From assembly GCA_902776765.1 (NCBI GenBank), contig CACYRP010000001.1, positions 25,144 through 89,143 on the forward strand: DNA of 64,000 nucleotides, in the 5' to 3' direction. The translations under genes were made by a program, and so were the position numbers. Shown piece after piece: positions 8,278 to 49,704 of the stretch; position 1 is the stretch's first letter, and each line of letters opens with the position of its first letter. Below the pieces are notes generated by a model. That model had not been told where the DNA came from. It made no database searches and worked only from the letters and a program-made list of their open reading frames with translations. The DNA is from Fibrobacter succinogenes. Its GTDB lineage: Bacteria > Fibrobacterota > Fibrobacteria > Fibrobacterales > Fibrobacteraceae.

Positions 8278-9727
8278 GTCGTACATTGGGCTGTTGGCTG
8301 CAGTTTGTGCCGGCATGCTCGCTTGCTCAAGCGACCATGATGTCGCTGGCACTGTTACGGATACGGGTAATACAATTGCTCTCGGTGGCGTTGTGACTCG
8401 TACCGATGGTTCGCCTGCTGTTTCTGCCTTGGTTCGCGTTGCTAGTGAACCTGCTGTTGGCGATTCTCTTGTTGAAGCTGAATACATTGAAACGGTTACG
8501 GATTCGCATGGCGTGTTCTCGTTTGATTCTGTATTTGCCGATACGTTCCAGTTAGCGGTTGTTGATGCGGAATACCAGGAGATTTCGTACAAGCCGCGTG
8601 CTACAAAGAATGCTGGCAAGCCGGACAGCATCAAGCTTGAAAAGGCTGCTGTGTTTAGTAGCGTACTGTATTACGAAGATATGGTCGAACCTTCTATGGC
8701 GGTTGGTTCTCACTTCAAGGTGTACGTGCCGGGAACTCCGTTCTCGCAGAGCGTTTTTGCTGGCGATTCGTTCTCGATTCTTATTCCAGAAGGTGAATGG
8801 TGGCTTGGGTTCTGCCCGGGCGATCCGCAGATCGTGGCTCGACTTGCAAATTCCGGTGTCGCGGATTCGTTAATTTATCGTACATGGAATATTGACGGTA
8901 AAGTCAAGTCTGGCGATACGATTTCGAAGGGGCCGTTTATCTGGAGTCCGACGATGGAAGTCGATTCCTTGATAAAGCTTGAAGAGCAGAAGAAAAAGGA
9001 AAAGAAACCGGCCTACTTGTCGGGTGTCGTGACTTGCAAAAAAGATAGCCTGTGCTCGAATGTTCAGGTGCAAATGATTACGGACCTTTATGGCTTTGAA
9101 TTTGTCGAAGGTGATTCCACTCGCTTTGTGATGCAGACCCAGACGAACGATTCTGGCCGCTGGTTCTTGCAGGTGCCGAAGTCTGTTCCGTATGATAGTC
9201 TCCGCATGGAATACCGTTTGCTTGATGACAAAGGCAATGTGGCTTTGGCTGGACTAAGTCGCTATGTGCGTGCTTCGGAACTCAAGGATTTGAAGGACAC
9301 GCTTTTGGTGGATACGGTTGAGTTGACTAAAACTTCTGTTCTTGTTAGTGGTGTGATGCTGGCTATCAATGCTGCTACGGATTCTGCTAAAACCGTAGAA
9401 GAGCAAGCGTTAAATCAGCCCGATAATTCGATCCAGTCGGATAACTGTAAGGTAAACAGCTTGAATAGCGTTGTTGTTGGCCTCAAGGGAACGTCCCATT
9501 TTGTAAGAGATGTGACTTGCAATATGTTTAAGATCGATAATCTCCCTGCAGGCGGGCATGACCTCGTCCTTTACTCGGGCGACCCCAAGGTGGTCAAGAC
9601 GCTTAGGGATGTTGGGCTTGCTTTGGACTCTATCGTGACGATAACGCATGTGCAATTGCCCAAGGGCGATACTTTGGACCAGCAGTGGATGACTTTTGAG
9701 CCGCCAACTTTAAAGACTGATAAATAA
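8264..9727 (+). CDS. hypothetical lipoprotein with carboxypeptidase-regulatory-like repeats
   Basis: MKLIKSYIGLLAAVCAGMLAC lipobox. GTVTD..GGVVTRTDGSPAVSALVRV is CarboxypepD_reg-like. GAGGAGGG lies 6 nt before the ATG. Overlaps the upstream gene by 14 nt. Confidence 0.65.
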   Translation: MKLIKSYIGLLAAVCAGMLACSSDHDVAGTVTDTGNTIALGGVVTRTDGSPAVSALVRVASEPAVGDSLVEAEYIETVTDSHGVFSFDSVFADTFQLAVVDAEYQEISYKPRATKNAGKPDSIKLEKAAVFSSVLYYEDMVEPSMAVGSHFKVYVPGTPFSQSVFAGDSFSILIPEGEWWLGFCPGDPQIVARLANSGVADSLIYRTWNIDGKVKSGDTISKGPFIWSPTMEVDSLIKLEEQKKKEKKPAYLSGVVTCKKDSLCSNVQVQMITDLYGFEFVEGDSTRFVMQTQTNDSGRWFLQVPKSVPYDSLRMEYRLLDDKGNVALAGLSRYVRASELKDLKDTLLVDTVELTKTSVLVSGVMLAINAATDSAKTVEEQALNQPDNSIQSDNCKVNSLNSVVVGLKGTSHFVRDVTCNMFKIDNLPAGGHDLVLYSGDPKVVKTLRDVGLALDSIVTITHVQLPKGDTLDQQWMTFEPPTLKTDK

Positions 9728-12250: not shown

Positions 12251-13651
12251 TTGAATCCAGAAGTTGCCGTAAAGATTTTTGAAGCTGGCAAAAATGCCGG
12301 GGCTGACTTTGTTGAAATTTTCGAAGAGGAAACCCGCAGTTCAAGCCTCGGCTTGAAAGATCGCCAGATTGAAACCGCGACCGCGGGTACCGAGTACGGT
12401 ATCGGCGTTCGCCTTTTGTACGGGACGGAAGTTTTGTACGGCTTTACGAGCGACGATAGCGAAGAGGCGCTGGTAAAGCTTGTGAAAACGCTTGCGTTCG
12501 GGCGCATTGCCGCAGCGGCGGGGGCGGAAGGCTCGGCCGCAAGGCCTTTTGAATTTGCTCCTGAAAAGCGCGTTTGCGATTTTAATGTTGCGGCCTATAA
12601 AGATCCGCGTGTGCTGGGTCAGGCCATGAAGCAGGATTTCTTGTTTCGTGCAGATAAAGCGGCTCGTGCGCTTTCGTCGAAGATTGCGCAAGTGGGCGCG
12701 AGCGTGACGGATAGTTGCACTTCGATTTCGCTTATGAACAGCGAAGGCTTGCACCTCGAAATGACGCGCGGTCGCTTGCGCGTGAATGTGAACGTGACTG
12801 CAACGGACGGAACGGAACGTTTGACAACGCACGAAGCTCCGGGCGCTCTCGGCGGCTACGAACTTTTAACAAACTATTCTCCAGAAGCGTTGGCCACGGT
12901 ATGCGGCGAGCGCGTGCTGCGCATGTTGGATGCCGGTTATATTGCTGGTGGCCAGATGCCGGTGGTGATGGGAAATGGCTTTGGCGGCGTGATTTTCCAC
13001 GAAGCTTGTGGACATCCGCTTGAAACGGAATCGGTGCGCCGTAATGCAAGTCCGTTCTGCGGAAAGCTTGGCGAAGCTATTGGCCAGCCGTGCCTTACTG
13101 CCATTGATGATGGTACGATGGATGGCGTATGGGGTAGCCTCAAGTATGACGACGAAGGTACGCCTACACAACGTACGGTGCTGATTGAAAACGGAATCTT
13201 GAAGACCTACATGAGTGACCGCGTGGGCGCTATGGAAGTGGGCATAGCTCGTACAGGAAGTGCCCGCCGCGAAAGCTACAAGTATGCTCCTGTGAGCCGC
13301 ATGCGCAATACTTTTATTGCCCCAGGCAAGGATACGCTCGAATCCATGATTGCAAGCGTCGATAACGGACTTTATGCGGCTCGCATGGCTGGCGGTTCCG
13401 TGAATCCGGCAACGGGCGAGTTTAACTTTGCCGTGGATGAAGGTTATGTCATTCGTAATGGCAAAATTTGCGAACCGGTGCGTGGAGCTACGCTTATCGG
13501 CAAAGGCCACGAAATCATGCCGCGTATTAGCATGGTGGGCTCGGACTTTGAGCAAGCCGCTGGCGTTTGTGGCGCATCGTCGGGACATGTGCCCGTAACG
13601 GTGGGGCAGCCCTCTATCAAGGTCGATCAGATTCTTGTGGGTGGAAGGTAA
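12251..13651 (+). CDS. tldD: TldD family metalloprotease
   Basis: 466 aa with the HEACGHPLE zinc motif and the C-terminal GxC..GQPSIKVDQILVGG typical of TldD/PmbA. TTG start one nt after the hisF stop. Confidence 0.85.
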   Translation: MNPEVAVKIFEAGKNAGADFVEIFEEETRSSSLGLKDRQIETATAGTEYGIGVRLLYGTEVLYGFTSDDSEEALVKLVKTLAFGRIAAAAGAEGSAARPFEFAPEKRVCDFNVAAYKDPRVLGQAMKQDFLFRADKAARALSSKIAQVGASVTDSCTSISLMNSEGLHLEMTRGRLRVNVNVTATDGTERLTTHEAPGALGGYELLTNYSPEALATVCGERVLRMLDAGYIAGGQMPVVMGNGFGGVIFHEACGHPLETESVRRNASPFCGKLGEAIGQPCLTAIDDGTMDGVWGSLKYDDEGTPTQRTVLIENGILKTYMSDRVGAMEVGIARTGSARRESYKYAPVSRMRNTFIAPGKDTLESMIASVDNGLYAARMAGGSVNPATGEFNFAVDEGYVIRNGKICEPVRGATLIGKGHEIMPRISMVGSDFEQAAGVCGASSGHVPVTVGQPSIKVDQILVGGR

Positions 13652-13736
13652 GGAACCGCTTGGATCCTCAACGGAGTTTGCCCTGAGTTTATCGAAGGGG
13701 CTGATGACGAATAAACACAAGTTGTCCATATAATGG

Positions 13737-13762
13737 AAAAAGCCCTCGTAAGAGGGCTTTTG
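13737..13762. terminator. bidirectional-looking hairpin terminator
   Basis: AAAAAGCCCTC-GTAA-GAGGGCTTTT. Confidence 0.55.
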
Positions 13763-13837
13763 AGTATTATGGGTTGTCATCGCGATGCAATGTACAAAAC
13801 GATTTCGAATAAAACAAGAAAACTATGTAAAAAAGAA

Positions 13838-13871
13838 ACAACGGCATCTCGTGAGAGGTGCCGTTGTTTTG
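13838..13871 (+). terminator. second hairpin plus T-tract
   Basis: AACAACGGCATCTC-GTG-AGAGGTGCCGTTGTTTT, about 75 nt after the first hairpin. Confidence 0.5.
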
Positions 13872-14112
13872 GTGTATGGGATGTTTGGTTTTGTATCCTT
13901 AAAATAGTTTAATTTGGAATAATTGTGGTCGATTTTGGTGTTTTTTCTGATGTAAAGCTTTACAACACTTTTCAACATTTTTCTTGTATAAATTCAATAA
14001 TTGCGTTTTGAAAAACCACCTGAATTAGGGAAAAACGCTGAAAATTGCCCATTTTGTTGTTTTTTGTAACCTTTTTGTACGAAAATGATTTTTTTTTCTA
14101 ATTTGTGAAGTG

Positions 14113-15270
14113 ATGGAACATCTTGAAAATGAAGCCTTATACGAACTTTTGCGGATGGCAGTCGATGAAGATTGCACGTTGAGCTTTTCGCATAGGCTGA
14201 GTTCGAAAGACTGGGAAAACCTGCATTCGGAATGTTTGAAGCAGCTTATTGCTGGCGTTGCCTATCAAGCTATTAGTCGTTTGCCTCGGGATTTACAGCC
14301 TCCTCATAAAATCGTATTGCGTTGGGCTCTCGAAGCGGAAGCCATTAAGGGGCAGAATAAGCTTTTGAATGCGGAAGCTGCTAGGCTTACGGAATTGTTT
14401 GCCGCACAAGGGTGCAAAACGGCTGTGCTCAAGGGGCCTGCCAATGCTTTGCTTTACCCGGACCCCTATATTCGTCAGGTTGGAGATATTGACTTGTGGG
14501 TTGATGGCGGGCGCGACCACGTTTTTGCGGTAATGAGAAAAATGGGGTATAAAATTCACGAAAGGGATTTATACTCGCCGCACCATGTTCACTTGGATCC
14601 TGAAGAAAATGGGATTCCCGTTGAAATCCATTACCGGCCGTCTTCTGGAATTAGGAATCTGTTTGCGAGTGCGCGCCTCCTGCGTTTTTTGGAAAGCGAA
14701 ATCCAGAATGTAGAACGAGGGAGCGAAGGCTTTTACGTTCCGTCTATAAAGTTTGCGCTTGCTATGCAGTTGGCCCATATTCAGCTTCATTTTATTAAGG
14801 ATGGCATTGGGTTTAAGCAAATTCTGGATTACTACATGTTGCTGAAGCATTCTTCCGAGGATAATCGTCGCGAAATTGCAAATAGACTTTCGGATTTTGG
14901 AATTTTGAGAGTTTGCAGGGCGCTCATGTGGATCATGGGTTACGTGTTTGAACTCGATGAATCCATGATGCTTTGCAAACCTGATGAAAAACTTGGCCGA
15001 AAAATGCTCGCCATCATACAAAAAGGCGGAAATTTTGGTATTTATGAAATGGATTCGCTGAATGAAATTTCAAAGAACTTTGTTGTTCGATTTTTGAAGC
15101 ATCGTTGGCGTAATTTTAGCGTGTTTTGGTTTGCGCCAATTGATGTTATGGTGAGCGAATTGGATTATTGGAAGGAGTTTTTTAAATCTATTTCTGTTCG
15201 GATTAAATTGCGGCGATGGTCGCTTTGGGATTTGTCTCACTCTAAATATGTAAAGAAAGAAGCTCGATGA
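14113..15270 (+). CDS. NTP_transf_5-type uncharacterised nucleotidyltransferase
   Basis: 385 aa. VGDIDLWVDGGRDHVFAVMRKMGYKIH..VEIHYR matches the GDxDL..(G-Y)..(ELH) pattern of PF14907 as I recall it. Confidence 0.65.
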   Translation: MEHLENEALYELLRMAVDEDCTLSFSHRLSSKDWENLHSECLKQLIAGVAYQAISRLPRDLQPPHKIVLRWALEAEAIKGQNKLLNAEAARLTELFAAQGCKTAVLKGPANALLYPDPYIRQVGDIDLWVDGGRDHVFAVMRKMGYKIHERDLYSPHHVHLDPEENGIPVEIHYRPSSGIRNLFASARLLRFLESEIQNVERGSEGFYVPSIKFALAMQLAHIQLHFIKDGIGFKQILDYYMLLKHSSEDNRREIANRLSDFGILRVCRALMWIMGYVFELDESMMLCKPDEKLGRKMLAIIQKGGNFGIYEMDSLNEISKNFVVRFLKHRWRNFSVFWFAPIDVMVSELDYWKEFFKSISVRIKLRRWSLWDLSHSKYVKKEAR

Positions 15271-16190
15271 CTAAGAAGTTTTTTAAAGTTGCTGAACATT
15301 TTTTTGCGGTAGAAGCCGACGAAGAAATTATGTCGCAAATGGGTAATTACGCTCCGTTTGCGGTTGATTCGTGCGAAAATCCTGTGTTTTCGGTTGCGGT
15401 GCAAGAAGCTTCTGCGCCCGGATACACCGAAGAAATCAGTCAGGATGAAGAAGGACAATCGATTTTATGCGGGCGCACGGCAGATGGTTTGCTTGCGTTT
15501 GACTTTTTGTTGTTCGGCGTATCTACGGGTGTGTTGGTGTGCGATAGTACGCTAAAACAGTCTACGTTGTTTTTGACTCCACGAGATGTTTTGGCGATGT
15601 CGACTGATGATGTCCAGCGAAAGCATGTCTTTGCTTTGAACAATTCGTTGATGGTTTTATTTGCGCTTGCGACCTCTGAATTGGATACGGCCTTGTTCCA
15701 TGCGGCGGGGATCCGCTATAAGGGGCTTGGCTATTTATTCTTGGGCAAGAGCGGAACGGGAAAGAGCACCCATGCAAGGCTCTGGCTCAAGTATAACGAG
15801 GGCTCCGAGCTGTTCAATGATGATAATCCTGTAGTGCGTTTGTTCAAAAATGCGGATGGAAAGCCGGTTGCTAAAGTTTTCGGTTCGCCGTGGAGCGGTA
15901 AGACGCCTTGCTACAAGAATGTCGAAATGGAAATGGGCGGATTCGTATTGCTATCGCAGGCGCCGTTCAATAAGATTTCGCCGTTGAAAGGTGTTGCGGC
16001 ATACGCTGCTATTTTGCCTTGTATTTCTGGAATGCGGTGGGATAAAAAGATGGCTGATGGTTTGCATAAAACGCAAAACGGTCTTGCAACGTGTGTTCCA
16101 TCGTGGTATTTGGAATGCCTGCCGGACGAAGAGGCGGCCACGTTGTGTTGTAAAACAGTCGTTTATGAAAATGGAGATTCCGCGCCATGA
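15267..16190 (+). CDS. HPr kinase C-terminal-like P-loop protein
   Basis: FHAAGIRYKGLGYLFLGKSGTGKSTHARLW..FNDDNPVV is like HprK-related kinases of RiPP/lasso clusters. 4-nt overlap with the upstream gene. Confidence 0.6.
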   Translation: MTKKFFKVAEHFFAVEADEEIMSQMGNYAPFAVDSCENPVFSVAVQEASAPGYTEEISQDEEGQSILCGRTADGLLAFDFLLFGVSTGVLVCDSTLKQSTLFLTPRDVLAMSTDDVQRKHVFALNNSLMVLFALATSELDTALFHAAGIRYKGLGYLFLGKSGTGKSTHARLWLKYNEGSELFNDDNPVVRLFKNADGKPVAKVFGSPWSGKTPCYKNVEMEMGGFVLLSQAPFNKISPLKGVAAYAAILPCISGMRWDKKMADGLHKTQNGLATCVPSWYLECLPDEEAATLCCKTVVYENGDSAP

Positions 16191-16648
16191 GCGGTTCGGG
16201 AAAAAAGGATGACTCGCTGATTCTTGCCGAGGCGATTCGCCTGGTCAAGAGTGGCGTAAGCGTCACGTTTCCGGTAAACGGGCGGAGCATGTTGCCGTTT
16301 ATCGTGGGCGGGCGCGATAGCGTGATTCTGGAAAAACCGAAAGCTTTACGGCGTGGTGATGTGGTGCTTGCGCTTGTCAAAACGAATGCTCCGGGAAACC
16401 ATTATGTTGTGCACCGGATTGTTTCGTTGGATGGTGAGCATGTGGTACTCATGGGCGATGGAAATCTTGCTTTGCGGGAACATTGTGACGTTTCGGATGT
16501 TTGTGCCAAGGTGATTTGCGTTGTAAAACCGAATGGGAAAAAATACGCTATGGCAGCTTTGCGATACCGAATCGCTGCAAAAATATGGTATATTCTGTTA
16601 CCGGTTAGACGTTATTTACTATGGATTTATAGGAAGATAAAAAAATGA
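16187..16648 (+). CDS. S24/S26 peptidase, SipW/archaeal-type (Ser-His) signal-peptidase-like
   Basis: VNGRSMLPFI (nucleophile Ser), RGDVVLA, YVVHRIV (His where bacterial SPase I has Lys), MGDGNLALRE. C-terminal hydrophobic helix. 4-nt overlaps on both sides. Confidence 0.6.
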   Translation: MSGSGKKDDSLILAEAIRLVKSGVSVTFPVNGRSMLPFIVGGRDSVILEKPKALRRGDVVLALVKTNAPGNHYVVHRIVSLDGEHVVLMGDGNLALREHCDVSDVCAKVICVVKPNGKKYAMAALRYRIAAKIWYILLPVRRYLLWIYRKIKK

Positions 16649-16914
16649 AAATCAAGAAAGGTTTTGTGCTGCGCGATGTGTGTGGTGAACAGGTGATTAT
16701 GGGTGAAGGTATTGGTGCTCTTGATTTTGGACGCCTCCTTTGCTTGAACGAAACGGCAGCTTGGCTTTGGAAACAGGCCGAACAGCAAGGTGAATTTACC
16801 GTAGATTCCCTTGCTGAAGCGCTTTGCGGCGAATACGACGTTGGCGCAGAACAGGCTAAGGCCGATGTGGCTGCGATTGTCGCCGAATGGCAAAAGGTGA
16901 ACGTGCTCGAATGA
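16645..16914 (+). CDS. PqqD family protein (RiPP recognition element-like)
   Basis: 89 aa. LCLNETAAWLWKQAEQQGEFTVDSLAEALCGEYDVGAEQAKADVAAIVAEWQKVNVLE fits the PqqD/RRE winged-helix pattern. Confidence 0.7.
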   Translation: MKIKKGFVLRDVCGEQVIMGEGIGALDFGRLLCLNETAAWLWKQAEQQGEFTVDSLAEALCGEYDVGAEQAKADVAAIVAEWQKVNVLE

Positions 16915-18605
16915 AATATATCGCTTGGCTGTGGCACGGAACGAAAGGCTTCCGGATAAATATTGTCGTTCGCATTTTGGCGGGAATCGCACGCGTTGCA
17001 TGCGGTCTTTTGATGATATGGCTGAGCAAGCGGTTTATTGATGAAACGATACGCACGGGTTCGCAAGATGATATTGTGCGTATGATTGCGTTTCTTGTTT
17101 TTACTGTGGTGGGGACAATTGTCCTTAGACTCTTGTATTATTACATGACCGCCTCTGCTATGGTGAAGATGACCAATGCGCTAAGGTTGTTTTATTTTGG
17201 CACGTTGTTTAAGCGGCCGCTTTTTGACGGTCATGAATTGCATTCGGGCGATGTGTCGTCGAGACTTTCGAAGGATATTGAAACGGTTTCGACTTCGGTA
17301 ATCGATACGCTCCCGCAGATGGCGGTGACGGGAATCCAGCTTGTGGGTGCGTTCCTTTTGATGCGCTGGTTTGACGCTCGTTTAGCGTGGGCGCTGCTGT
17401 TGCTTACACCTGTAATGGTTGTGGTGGGTAAGCTGATTTCACGCAAGTTGCGCAAGATGACGCTTGATATTCGCGAAGGCGAAAGCCGCATCCAGATGCA
17501 GGTGCAAGAAGGTGTGGAATACAATGCTGTGTTGCGTTCGCTGGAAAGCGAAAGCTGGGTGACGGAACGGCTTGGTTTAAAACAAAATAAACTTGAACGC
17601 GATGTGCTGCGGCGGACTCGCTTTACGACGGTCGCGCGTTTTGCAATAGGCTCTGCGTTTGGACTTGGCTATTTGCTTGCGTTTGTGTGGGGCGGGCTTG
17701 GGCTGCGTGATGGGACGATTACGTTTGGCGTGATGACATCTTTTTTGCAGTTGGTCGGGCAAATCCAGCACCCGATTTTGACGTTGCTTGGGATGGTGCC
17801 GCAATTGGTACATTCGACGGCTAGCATTGATCGTTTGGATGAGTTGACTAAAAAGGTCGTGGATGATGCTGGGGCGTGCGCGGGTGAAACGTGCGGAAAT
17901 GAGCGCGGAAATGAACTGCGCGGGCGCTTGGGCTTACGGCTAGAGAATGTGCGCTTTGGATACGCTGGCGGCGACCTCGAAATAGTCCGTAATTTTTCGC
18001 ACGATTTTATGCCTGGGAGCAAGGCTGCGATTATGGGCGAGACCGGTAAAGGCAAGACAACCTTGTTTAGGCTTTTGCTTGGGTTCGTGAAGCCGGATAG
18101 TGGACGAATGGTAATTTATTCGAAATCCGCTGTAGCGAATGTAGGCTCGGGCGAACGTTCGGAAATGCGCGGAGAATCGGTTGATGTTTCGGAAGAGACT
18201 CGTTCGAATTTTGTGTATGTGCCGCAAGGCAACACGCTGATGAACGGCTCTGTGCGCTACAATTTGCAGTTGGCAAAAACCGATGCGACTGAAGAAGAAA
18301 TGCTCCGCGTTTTGCACATTGCTTGTGCGGAATTTGTGGAGACGTTGCCCGATGGAATTGATACAGAAATTGGGGAACGCGGGCATGGGCTTAGTGAAGG
18401 CCAGGCACAGCGTATTGCAATTGCGCGTGGGCTTTTACGTCCCGGAAACATTTTGCTTTTTGATGAAATTAGTTCTTCGCTGGACGAGGCGACTGAGGCG
18501 GAACTTTACCGTCGCATATTCGAAGCCTTCCCGGAAAAGACGATGATTTTTGTAACGCACCGCACTGCTATTTGCGAAATGTGCGACGAGACCGTGCGCT
18601 TGTAG
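16911..18605 (+). CDS. ABC exporter, fused permease/ATPase
   Basis: Six-TM N-half. Walker A GETGKGKTT, signature LSEGQAQRIAIARG, Walker B ILLFDE. ATGA overlap with the pqqD-like stop. Confidence 0.9.
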   Translation: MKYIAWLWHGTKGFRINIVVRILAGIARVACGLLMIWLSKRFIDETIRTGSQDDIVRMIAFLVFTVVGTIVLRLLYYYMTASAMVKMTNALRLFYFGTLFKRPLFDGHELHSGDVSSRLSKDIETVSTSVIDTLPQMAVTGIQLVGAFLLMRWFDARLAWALLLLTPVMVVVGKLISRKLRKMTLDIREGESRIQMQVQEGVEYNAVLRSLESESWVTERLGLKQNKLERDVLRRTRFTTVARFAIGSAFGLGYLLAFVWGGLGLRDGTITFGVMTSFLQLVGQIQHPILTLLGMVPQLVHSTASIDRLDELTKKVVDDAGACAGETCGNERGNELRGRLGLRLENVRFGYAGGDLEIVRNFSHDFMPGSKAAIMGETGKGKTTLFRLLLGFVKPDSGRMVIYSKSAVANVGSGERSEMRGESVDVSEETRSNFVYVPQGNTLMNGSVRYNLQLAKTDATEEEMLRVLHIACAEFVETLPDGIDTEIGERGHGLSEGQAQRIAIARGLLRPGNILLFDEISSSLDEATEAELYRRIFEAFPEKTMIFVTHRTAICEMCDETVRL

Positions 18606-18660
18606 ATGGGTAATCCGAAGAGCTTGTTTCGGTGTTTTGGTGCCGAGTGCTCTTATCCAC

Positions 18661-18717
18661 GCGTTTCAAAAAAAGGCTATGAACCGTTGCTTTTGAAACG
18701 CTAGCGTGTTATTTTTT
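18661..18717 (+). terminator. operon terminator
   Basis: Perfect 11-bp stem GCGTTTCAAAA/TTTTGAAACGC with a 19-nt loop, then GTTATTTTTT. Confidence 0.5.
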
Positions 18718-18846
18718 GAATAGGTGGGGGCTTTGAAACGGCTTGAAAAGGCTTTTTTTTTCGAAAATCGCGATTTTTGGGGTGCTAGGGGACTTTTGGC
18801 ACATTGTTTGCAATAGGGAAGGGGAAAAAAGAAAAGCGAGGATAAA

Positions 18847-21414
<2,568 letters not shown>

Positions 21415-49564: not shown

Positions 49565-49704
49565 ATTATTTATGCTTTCGAAAAACAAACAGAAAAAAGA
49601 ATACCAGAAGCCTAGAATGAAGGTGATTCCTCTTAAAATGCAGGGAAATCTTCTTGATAGTAGTAACCCTGATAGAATGCGAGTAATCATCGTTGATTAG
49701 ATGA

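Follow-up and report, generated by a model that had tools for sequence, protein, structure and literature searches.

Introduction

Linear polyphosphorylated peptides (LPPs) were described by Popov et al. (Nat Commun, May 2026; PMC13381572) from the lppAKBSDN genes of Paenibacillus alginolyticus DSM5050. Clusters of this type carry genes for a signal peptidase of the archaeal/SipW type (LppS), a discrete recognition element (RRE) for peptides that are made on the ribosome and modified afterwards (RiPPs), termed LppB, and an HprK-like kinase (LppK), together with an NTP_transf_5 protein (LppN), an MsbA-like pump (LppD) and one to three precursors with the leader motif YxxPxVLxHQxIxFETxxS (PMC13381572). 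In Bacillus subtilis, LppK placed up to four phosphates on Ser3 of the core, and LppS (S29, H68, D93) cut the leader after Thr-1 in a reaction that required LppB and was poor without phosphorylation (PMC13381572). The system has no cyclase and its product is therefore linear; it has been characterised as far as intermediates, with each role backed by genetics and mass spectrometry except that of LppN, for which no activity was seen (PMC13381572). LPPs were stated by the authors to be 'restricted to the Bacillota' (PMC13381572). Here we analyse a 64-kb stretch of DNA from Fibrobacter succinogenes (64,000 nucleotides of contig CACYRP010000001.1, hereafter the window). A cassette of five intact open reading frames (ORFs) on its + strand (14113-18605) is probably a single operon that encodes an LPP-type pathway to a ribosomal peptide, judged by analogy with the Paenibacillus genes, and a 42-residue ORF at 49572-49700 is the likely precursor.

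Two other described systems share parts of this gene set. Firmicute lasso peptide clusters of the paeninodin/pseudomycoidin type have, like the window, a discrete B1-type RRE for a [Y/W]xxP leader, an NTP_transf_5 protein and an ABC exporter, and their HprK-like kinase, which acts on Ser, has a candidate counterpart here. In contrast to those clusters, the window has neither an Asn-synthetase-like cyclase nor a transglutaminase-like B2 protease; removal of the leader falls to a serine peptidase instead, and a linear product is therefore expected. The SynChlorMet (Scm) cassette (TIGR04248-TIGR04251) likewise has a ScmC-family P-loop protein adjoining a PqqD-like protein, but the ScmE and ScmF radical SAM/SPASM enzymes are missing from the window and the NCBIfam scores fall far below cut-off. 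The cassette is not mentioned in PMC10352776, PMC7533575, PMC4289311, the RRE-Finder paper or the 2025 RRE structure paper, and literature searches on ScmC, PF14907 and RiPP mining in Bacteroidales yielded nothing relevant to it.

Results

Five overlapping genes predicted to encode LPP-type enzymes

An ATGA start/stop overlap joins the genes at all four junctions (at 16911 between the RRE and exporter genes, for example), which bears out an earlier reading of the DNA made from its letters alone (the sequence-only reading), where a 4-nt overlap was noted at every junction. Three of the five products were assigned readily by profile searches. The first gene (14113(14110)-15270) encodes an NTP_transf_5 protein with the nucleotidyltransferase fold, an LppN-like accessory enzyme (PF14907, E = 1.8e-45, residues 31-278). 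The fourth (16645-16914) encodes a discrete RRE of the PqqD family (PF05402, E = 2.8e-14), and the fifth (16911-18605) an MsbA-like half-size ABC exporter resembling LppD and devoid of a C39 peptidase domain (ABC_membrane, E = 8.5e-26; ABC_tran, E = 3.2e-21; MsbA TIGR02203, E = 6.9e-62). The models matched by the NTP_transf_5 protein and the exporter are the same as those in the table of the LPP paper (PMC13381572).

The second gene (15267-16190) encodes a candidate P-loop peptide kinase, LppK-like. Its profile matches were weak (Hpr_kinase_C, E = 0.085; HprK_rel_B, E = 0.0035; ScmC, E = 0.006), and its homologues are assigned to PF27840, the ScmC family, in precomputed Pfam. The P-loop GKSGTGKST and a second motif, NDDNPVV, were invariant among 15 homologues. 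An AlphaFold2 model had a pLDDT (predicted local distance difference test) of 87, and all 47 Foldseek matches in the PDB at E <= 1e-3 were PEPCK or HprK/P. At the level of fold, the second protein is predicted from this model to be a kinase of the HprK/PEPCK type.

The third gene (16187-16648) encodes a small Ser/His protease resembling signal peptidase I (SpI), the candidate leader peptidase. In both Pfam and NCBIfam its matches, those to S26 and S24 among them, fell short of the cut-offs (E = 7e-4 for S26; E = 1e-6 for sigpep_I_bact). By BLASTP it was homologous to LppS (WP_029196374.1; E = 2e-8, 29% identity over 105 residues), with which it has in common its overall length and a C-terminal helix, basic and hydrophobic in the window protein. 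The catalytic Ser and His of the two proteins align, and Ser34, His76 and Gly90-Asp91 are invariant across the clostridial sequences, the LppS sequences and those of the group formed by Fibrobacter and Bacteroidales (FCB, for Fibrobacterota-Chlorobiota-Bacteroidota). The Ser-His pair, the 'SM.P' and 'HR' motifs followed by GD, and the small size are also found in B. subtilis SipW and the archaeal- and ER (endoplasmic reticulum)-type signal peptidases I (MEROPS S26B). Unlike SipW, the window protease has no N-terminal membrane anchor; it is RRE-coupled, and its substrate is presumably a peptide precursor in the cytoplasm rather than Sec signal peptides. When the RRE and the protease were searched against the PDB as single sequences, the results were uninformative.

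The family assignments of the sequence-only reading therefore stood firmly for the NTP_transf_5, PqqD and ABC proteins; those to HprK-like and S24/S26 proteins were weak by profile and gained support from the fold and from the BLASTP match to LppS. That match, with Ser and His aligned, also confirmed the suggestion that a different class of peptidase occupies the protease position.

Conservation of the cassette in Fibrobacter and Bacteroidales

The kinase family comprises at least 7,600 clusters at 90% identity. In a scan of one genome per species, 578 stretches matched the kinase, and the best 80 of these were taken as related loci; all 80 came from Fibrobacter or Bacteroidales (Prevotella, Bacteroidaceae, Alistipes). 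Kinase, peptidase, RRE and ABC exporter genes occurred within 5 kb of each other in 60 of the 80, and 12 of the other 20 loci were cut by contig ends. The co-conservation for which the sequence-only reading had proposed a check was thus found. An NTP_transf_5 gene stood beside the kinase gene in 17 of the 60 complete cassettes. In some loci the gene order was permuted, with the RRE or the peptidase first or with divergent halves. Since the content was retained while the order changed, the genes appear to be a functional unit rather than inherited synteny. The surroundings of the cassettes were otherwise variable.

We searched for the enzymes of neighbouring RiPP classes. The SGGxDS motif of the Asn-synthetase PP-loop and the radical-SAM motif CxxxCxxC were absent from all long ORFs of the 64-kb window, and no conserved cyclase-sized neighbour was found across the 80 loci. 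Neither the conserved neighbours nor the syntenic locus of Fibrobacter sp. UWB7, which is annotated with Pfam, included a B2 protease, the window's other ORFs having been Pfam-scanned in part, and no radical SAM gene was seen among the conserved neighbours of the FCB loci or in the Desulfosporosinus locus described below. The earlier statement that cyclase, B2 protease and radical SAM enzyme are lacking was upheld by the motif scan of the window and by the UWB7 flanks, the scan for B2 being partial.

A family of KKxYxxP precursors and a candidate unlinked member in the window

Small ORFs flanking the related cassettes were clustered, and a hidden Markov model (HMM) of the resulting precursor family was iterated. 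The family consists of peptides of 35-65 residues with the leader M-KK-x-Y-x-(K/A)-P-x-(M/T)-x-V-(V/I)-x-L … L-L-x-(S/G)-S, in which KK, Y and P never vary, whereas the C-terminal parts differ between peptides and tend to be acidic. In 33 of 48 peptides, the residue 20 positions after the Tyr is a Ser. The RREs of lasso and LPP systems are established to bind a YxxP motif (PMC13381572). The iterated model retrieved 49 small ORFs from 33 sources, one to three per locus, and about 40% of the related loci carried one to three precursors beside the cassette. Against 5.8 billion proteins the precursor profile matched 477 clusters at E <= 0.01, all labelled 'hypothetical' and none with a Pfam domain. 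The peptides matched no family in NCBIfam or Pfam; one of them gave a match to the lasso_cyano leader at E = 0.077.

The sole precursor-like gene of the window is the ORF at 49572-49700 (+ strand), 31 kb from the cassette, which encodes the 42-residue peptide MLSKNKQKKEYQKPRMKVIPLKMQGNLLDSSNPDRMRVIIVD. It matched the HMM with E = 6e-10, and with E = 5e-13 after iteration, among 48,329 stop-to-stop segments. Its leader (KKEYQKP…LL; leader sequence KKEYQKPRMKVIPL) is followed by Ser30/Ser31 and a short core. The ORF occupies a gap of 140 bp that separates a ribF-like gene from a convergent gene for an SNF2-family helicase, and gene calls on seven metagenome contigs place it in the same ribF/SNF2 gap. 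A test of the dN/dS type on the peptide was uninformative, the relatives being too close (two synonymous changes and one non-synonymous change). The nearest relative from outside the species, L010 7562-7711, has a full cassette directly downstream of it. In L006, the syntenic genome closest to the window, where the cassette also lies between the TldD and ClpB genes, a precursor gene stands directly 5' of the NTP_transf_5 gene in a segment that is absent from the window, and the small ORFs in the cassette flanks of the window (13640-14130 and 18590-18860) held nothing family-like. Because related loci such as L006 and L010 have adjoining precursors, the missing neighbour is a matter of the layout of this genome and not a trait of the family. 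Unlinked precursors and RREs are on record for LPP systems of the Bacillota (PMC13381572, Supplementary Data 1).

On its resemblance to this family, 49572-49700 probably encodes the precursor of the cassette. The sequence-only reading had found no convincing precursor, which holds for the immediate flanks but not for the window as a whole; its proposal of a substrate encoded elsewhere fits a sole candidate 31 kb away.

One metagenome contig (L091 1851-1979) contains the window peptide from residue 7 on, with an identical downstream flank, but has a different N-terminus and unrelated sequence upstream, which points to a breakpoint of recombination within the first part of the peptide gene.

Relationship to the Bacillota LPP systems and their clostridial relatives

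The LPP system and the window have the same five enzyme types, and both are without cyclase or B2 protease. In both, the precursor begins with a (K)KxYxxP leader that is soon followed by a conserved Ser, and there are one to three precursors per locus, sometimes unlinked. The differences concern the host (diderm Fibrobacterota and Bacteroidota versus Bacillota), the remainder of the leader (V-x-x-L…LL-x-x-S versus VLxHQxIxFETxxS, with only KKxYxxP in common), the position of the conserved Ser (20 versus 18 residues after the Tyr) and the neighbouring genes, which are large surface-protein or housekeeping genes in FCB and capsule loci in LPP systems. The cassette shares with the LPP clusters an LppS-homologous peptidase, an HprK-like kinase at the level of fold, the NTP_transf_5 protein and the MsbA-like exporter, whereas pairwise comparison did not place its RRE in the LppB clade and its precursor does not have the LppA-type leader motif. 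By these sequence comparisons, the cassette is outside the characterised Bacillales LPP clade.

Among sequences that appear in the literature, the closest relatives were those of Clostridia. Cluster 4 of the sequence similarity network (SSN) of the LPP study (Dehalobacter, Desulfosporosinus, Anaerocolumna) combines SpIs with RREs labelled 'others' and precursors given as 'ND' (PMC13381572, Supplementary Data 1). The window RRE matched the Dehalobacter RRE over its full length (BLASTP E = 6e-19, 36% identity) and the window protease matched the Dehalobacter SpI, again over its full length (E = 1e-18, 31% identity), both much closer than LppB and LppS (E = 4e-4 and 2e-8). In Desulfosporosinus meridiei (L095 3263-10191), two small ORFs encoding MKEYIKPTTNYVELRVEESLASMAS… and MKTYTKPRVYYVELRAEESLACTAS… are followed by genes for a ScmC-family kinase, a PqqD protein, an S24/S26 peptidase and an ABC exporter, with an NTP_transf_5 gene nearby, all within an exopolysaccharide locus. 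The same set occurs in Dehalobacter (L092/L093 5038-8477) with an additional radical SAM gene between the RRE and kinase genes, which may make this locus a bridge to the SynChlorMet cassette. The peptides of these sister loci follow the pattern MK-x-Y-x-KP…VEL…AS in the same layout as in FCB; the clostridial clusters differ from the window in their Gram-positive hosts and in being embedded in exopolysaccharide loci. Because its RRE and protease are nearest to the clostridial cluster and the clostridial loci have the same layout, the cassette belongs, as far as sequence similarity can tell, to a second, LPP-like sister clade built on ScmC-family kinases and spanning Clostridia and FCB (Fibrobacter and Bacteroidales).

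Association of precursor genes with large surface-protein genes

In the related loci, 42 of 48 precursor ORFs lie on the same strand and less than 700 nt downstream of a gene for a large surface-type (adhesin-like) protein. These proteins contain Listeria-Bacteroides repeats, BspA-type leucine-rich repeats, Cna-B, Calx-beta or GLUG domains, have ordinary N-terminal signal peptides without a YxxP leader, and have in common a C-terminal domain, conserved and some 75 residues long (…LPDxIxVxL…DT.TGE…WYDLxGRxLxGKP…NGKKv.IK). No Pfam or NCBIfam model matched this domain, and its identification as a recognised sorting domain of the type IX secretion system was not supported by either database. Examples of the pairing are L013 4863-8477 with precursors at 8474-8800, L035 13232-20808 on the - strand, and a Prevotella locus with three surface-gene/precursor modules in tandem (L082 3706-13492, - strand). 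The window itself contains no gene with the shared C-terminal domain.

In one case the core of a precursor (L024 8544-8678, SMDVEFINRD) echoes the start of the C-terminal domain of the upstream gene (L024 5329-8568, SMDVEFVNRE). The core NPDRMRVIIVD of the window peptide (49665-49697) weakly resembles this first strand of the domain in other loci, for instance LPDKMRVVIV in L082, with p ~0.004 versus shuffles, a value that is not significant after 48 tests. We rejected the idea that precursor cores are in general copies of the C-terminal domain of the upstream gene, since the cognate pair scored better than non-cognate ones in L024 alone and, by a small margin, in L042 and L057.

The association with surface-protein genes is a correlation and the best lead to a biological role. 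One may go further and suppose that cassettes, KKxYxxP precursors and adhesin-like proteins form one system, in which a linear peptide, after phosphorylation, further decoration and export, is coupled to its cognate surface protein, for example as an anchor, partner, maturation factor or regulator of that protein; some cores, that of the window included, would imitate the first strand of the C-terminal domain. We regard this extended proposal as rather doubtful. If true, it would give LPP-type peptides a biological role in the cell-surface biology of gut and rumen Gram-negative bacteria.

Discussion

Proposed pathway

With the same six components as the LPP system, the cassette most likely works in the same way. 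By analogy with LppB, the PqqD-type RRE would bind the KKxYxxP leader (KKEYQKP) of the 49572-49700 product, and the HprK-fold kinase would phosphorylate, probably repeatedly, the conserved Ser after LL (Ser30 or Ser31). The SipW-like peptidase, with Ser34 and His76, would then remove the leader from the RRE-presented phosphorylated precursor, probably within or next to LL-D-S-S. Under the LPP spacing, in which the cut falls three residues ahead of the phospho-Ser, one would expect the core DSSNPDRMRVIIVD or one residue less. The NTP_transf_5 protein may further decorate or extend the phosphate, and the MsbA-like transporter would export the linear product across the inner membrane. The sequence-only reading had proposed an RRE-dependent pathway, distinct from lasso biosynthesis, to a linear, exported peptide that is phosphorylated and/or nucleotidylated, and this agrees with the experiments on the same gene set in P. 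alginolyticus (PMC13381572). It had also allowed for the cassette being a characterised system already: a homologous cassette type is indeed known as far as intermediates (PMC13381572), and the clade of the window is distinct from it.

Several observations weigh against an LPP-type assignment. In the protease, the column aligned to the catalytic Asp93 of LppS is not acidic: the window has Arg there and the family various residues, and an invariant Glu (Glu98, 16 of 16 FCB sequences) stands one residue later. The protease reaches no curated family cut-off and does not match TIGR02228, unlike the SpIs of Bacillota. Similarity of the RRE to LppB is marginal (the BLASTP match spans 30 residues, and hhalign gave a probability of 59%), and the RRE family profile matched lasso RREs in the PDB (TfuB1, E = 7.6e-4; PbaB1, E = 0.021) but not 9X8Z. 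The FCB precursor HMM fails on the LppA sequences of Bacillota (best E = 2.8) and detects the clostridial peptides only weakly. The chemistry assigned to the FCB/clostridial clade rests on analogy with the Paenibacillus lpp genes, and in a diderm cell the product would get no farther than the periplasm if an MsbA-type pump were its sole exporter. Finally, because the peptide gene lies 31 kb from the cassette, the pairing of the two is inferred, and there may be other cassettes or precursors elsewhere in the genome.

Alternative explanations

The match of the RRE family to TfuB1 and PbaB1, its nearest relatives in the PDB, could mean that the cassette is a decayed or split lasso cluster whose cyclase and B2 protease are encoded elsewhere in the genome and whose product is a phosphorylated lasso peptide. 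Weak NCBIfam matches to lasso_PqqD models and the lasso-type YxxP in the leader point the same way, as do the same accessory enzymes in paeninodin-type lasso clusters (PMC13381572); of the lasso components, the B1-type RRE and the [Y/W]xxP leader were found, but not the cyclase and B2. We nevertheless consider a lasso product very unlikely. The Asn-synthetase motif is missing from the whole 64 kb and a conserved cyclase-sized neighbour from all 80 loci, and the cassette has a dedicated leader peptidase of its own that is conserved in the operon. Two thirds of the SpI clusters of Bacillota are likewise without lasso genes and have linear products (PMC13381572), and the predicted cores are short, about 11-14 residues in the window. 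A remnant of the SynChlorMet type, working with radical SAM/SPASM maturases encoded elsewhere and with phosphorylation not its primary chemistry, would account for the placement of the kinase homologues in the ScmC family of Pfam and for the radical SAM gene of the Dehalobacter relative. The matches to the Scm models are nonetheless far below the cut-offs (TIGR04249 ScmC, 15.9 bits versus 125, E = 0.006; TIGR04248 ScmD, 16 bits versus 100, E = 0.01), no long ORF of the window has the CxxxCxxC motif, and radical SAM genes are lacking among the conserved neighbours of the 80 FCB loci and in Desulfosporosinus. The intact P-loop and the HprK-like DD motif, moreover, argue at the sequence level for an active kinase, and we give an Scm-type function hardly any weight.

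The frequent position of precursor ORFs just downstream of adhesin-like genes allows a different view, in which the SipW-like peptidase and the exporter are dedicated to the neighbouring large surface proteins or to a surface polymer and the small peptides are regulators or by-products. B. subtilis SipW is such a dedicated signal peptidase, serving biofilm matrix proteins (PMC13381572), and the relatives in Clostridia and Bacillales lie within exopolysaccharide loci. However, the cassettes of the window and of L001-L004 have no such neighbour, and it is the small peptides, not the surface proteins with their ordinary signal peptides, that carry the YxxP leader. If no peptide were the substrate, it would be difficult to account for an RRE and a peptide kinase, and LppS itself cleaves a peptide precursor in an RRE-dependent manner (PMC13381572). 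Service to surface proteins or polymers is therefore unlikely to be the main task of the cassette, for which an LPP-type peptide pathway remains the probable function.

Significance

The idea of such a pathway is not categorically new, since a homologous cassette was characterised in 2026 (PMC13381572). New are the distinct and very widespread Gram-negative clade, the precursor family that belongs to it, this genome's probable unlinked precursor and the link to surface-protein genes, which is the first functional lead for LPP-type peptides. The sister clade extends the LPP-like family across the Gram-positive/Gram-negative divide and is common in Fibrobacter, Prevotella, Bacteroidaceae and Alistipes, dominant fibre degraders of the rumen and gut. 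Hundreds of candidate precursors, for which no Pfam or NCBIfam model exists, are missed by present annotation and RiPP-mining rules. Cultured strains suited to chemical work include Fibrobacter sp. UWB7 and UWB16, Prevotella sp. khp7 and P. aff. ruminicola Tc2-24.

Flanking regions and variant loci

The cassette is flanked by housekeeping genes, a TldD/PmbA-family protease gene (12251-13651) upstream and clpB (18847-21414) downstream. The same TldD-ClpB synteny occurs in Fibrobacter sp. UWB7, where the other neighbours belong only to housekeeping Pfam families. TldD was considered as a component of the cassette and rejected; it is absent from most related loci, and its adjacency is therefore judged to be lineage-specific synteny.

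Pattern scans for promoters and terminators gave counts no higher than in shuffled sequence. One predicted terminator-like hairpin, a consensus match from the pattern scan only, lies directly 3' of the exporter stop codon (18615-18632, + strand). The intergenic region 5' of the operon (13652-14112) is without the module of surface-protein gene and precursor carried by L006. By blastn, L006 has about 1.2 kb more than the window here, a C-terminal-domain gene fragment plus the precursor, located between sequence matching window 13729-13978 and its NTP_transf_5 gene. This matching stretch downstream of TldD is 89% identical between the window and L006, versus 83% for the adjacent 3' end of the TldD gene, and contains two terminator-like hairpins (~13738-13765 and ~13841-13870). 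An Rfam scan of 13729-13978 gave only sub-threshold small RNA matches (BTnc060, 33 bits versus a gathering score of 229).

The UWB7 cassette (L001 7731-9986) has two tandem NTP_transf_5 genes in place of the single gene of the window, and an extra ORF of 137 residues after the exporter gene. Partial cassettes were present in metagenome-assembled genomes (MAGs) of Fibrobacter (L009, L017, L019, L020, L025, L028 and L029). They consist of genes for an NTP_transf_5 protein, a longer kinase (337-371 residues) and a peptidase, preceded by precursors and with no RRE or ABC exporter gene nearby, and may rely on a full cassette elsewhere in the genome. The MAG RUG12637 has two copies (L018 and L019). 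At L007 10001-11338, a single ORF of 445 residues extends across the kinase and peptidase positions, which could reflect a gene fusion or a frameshift in the assembly.

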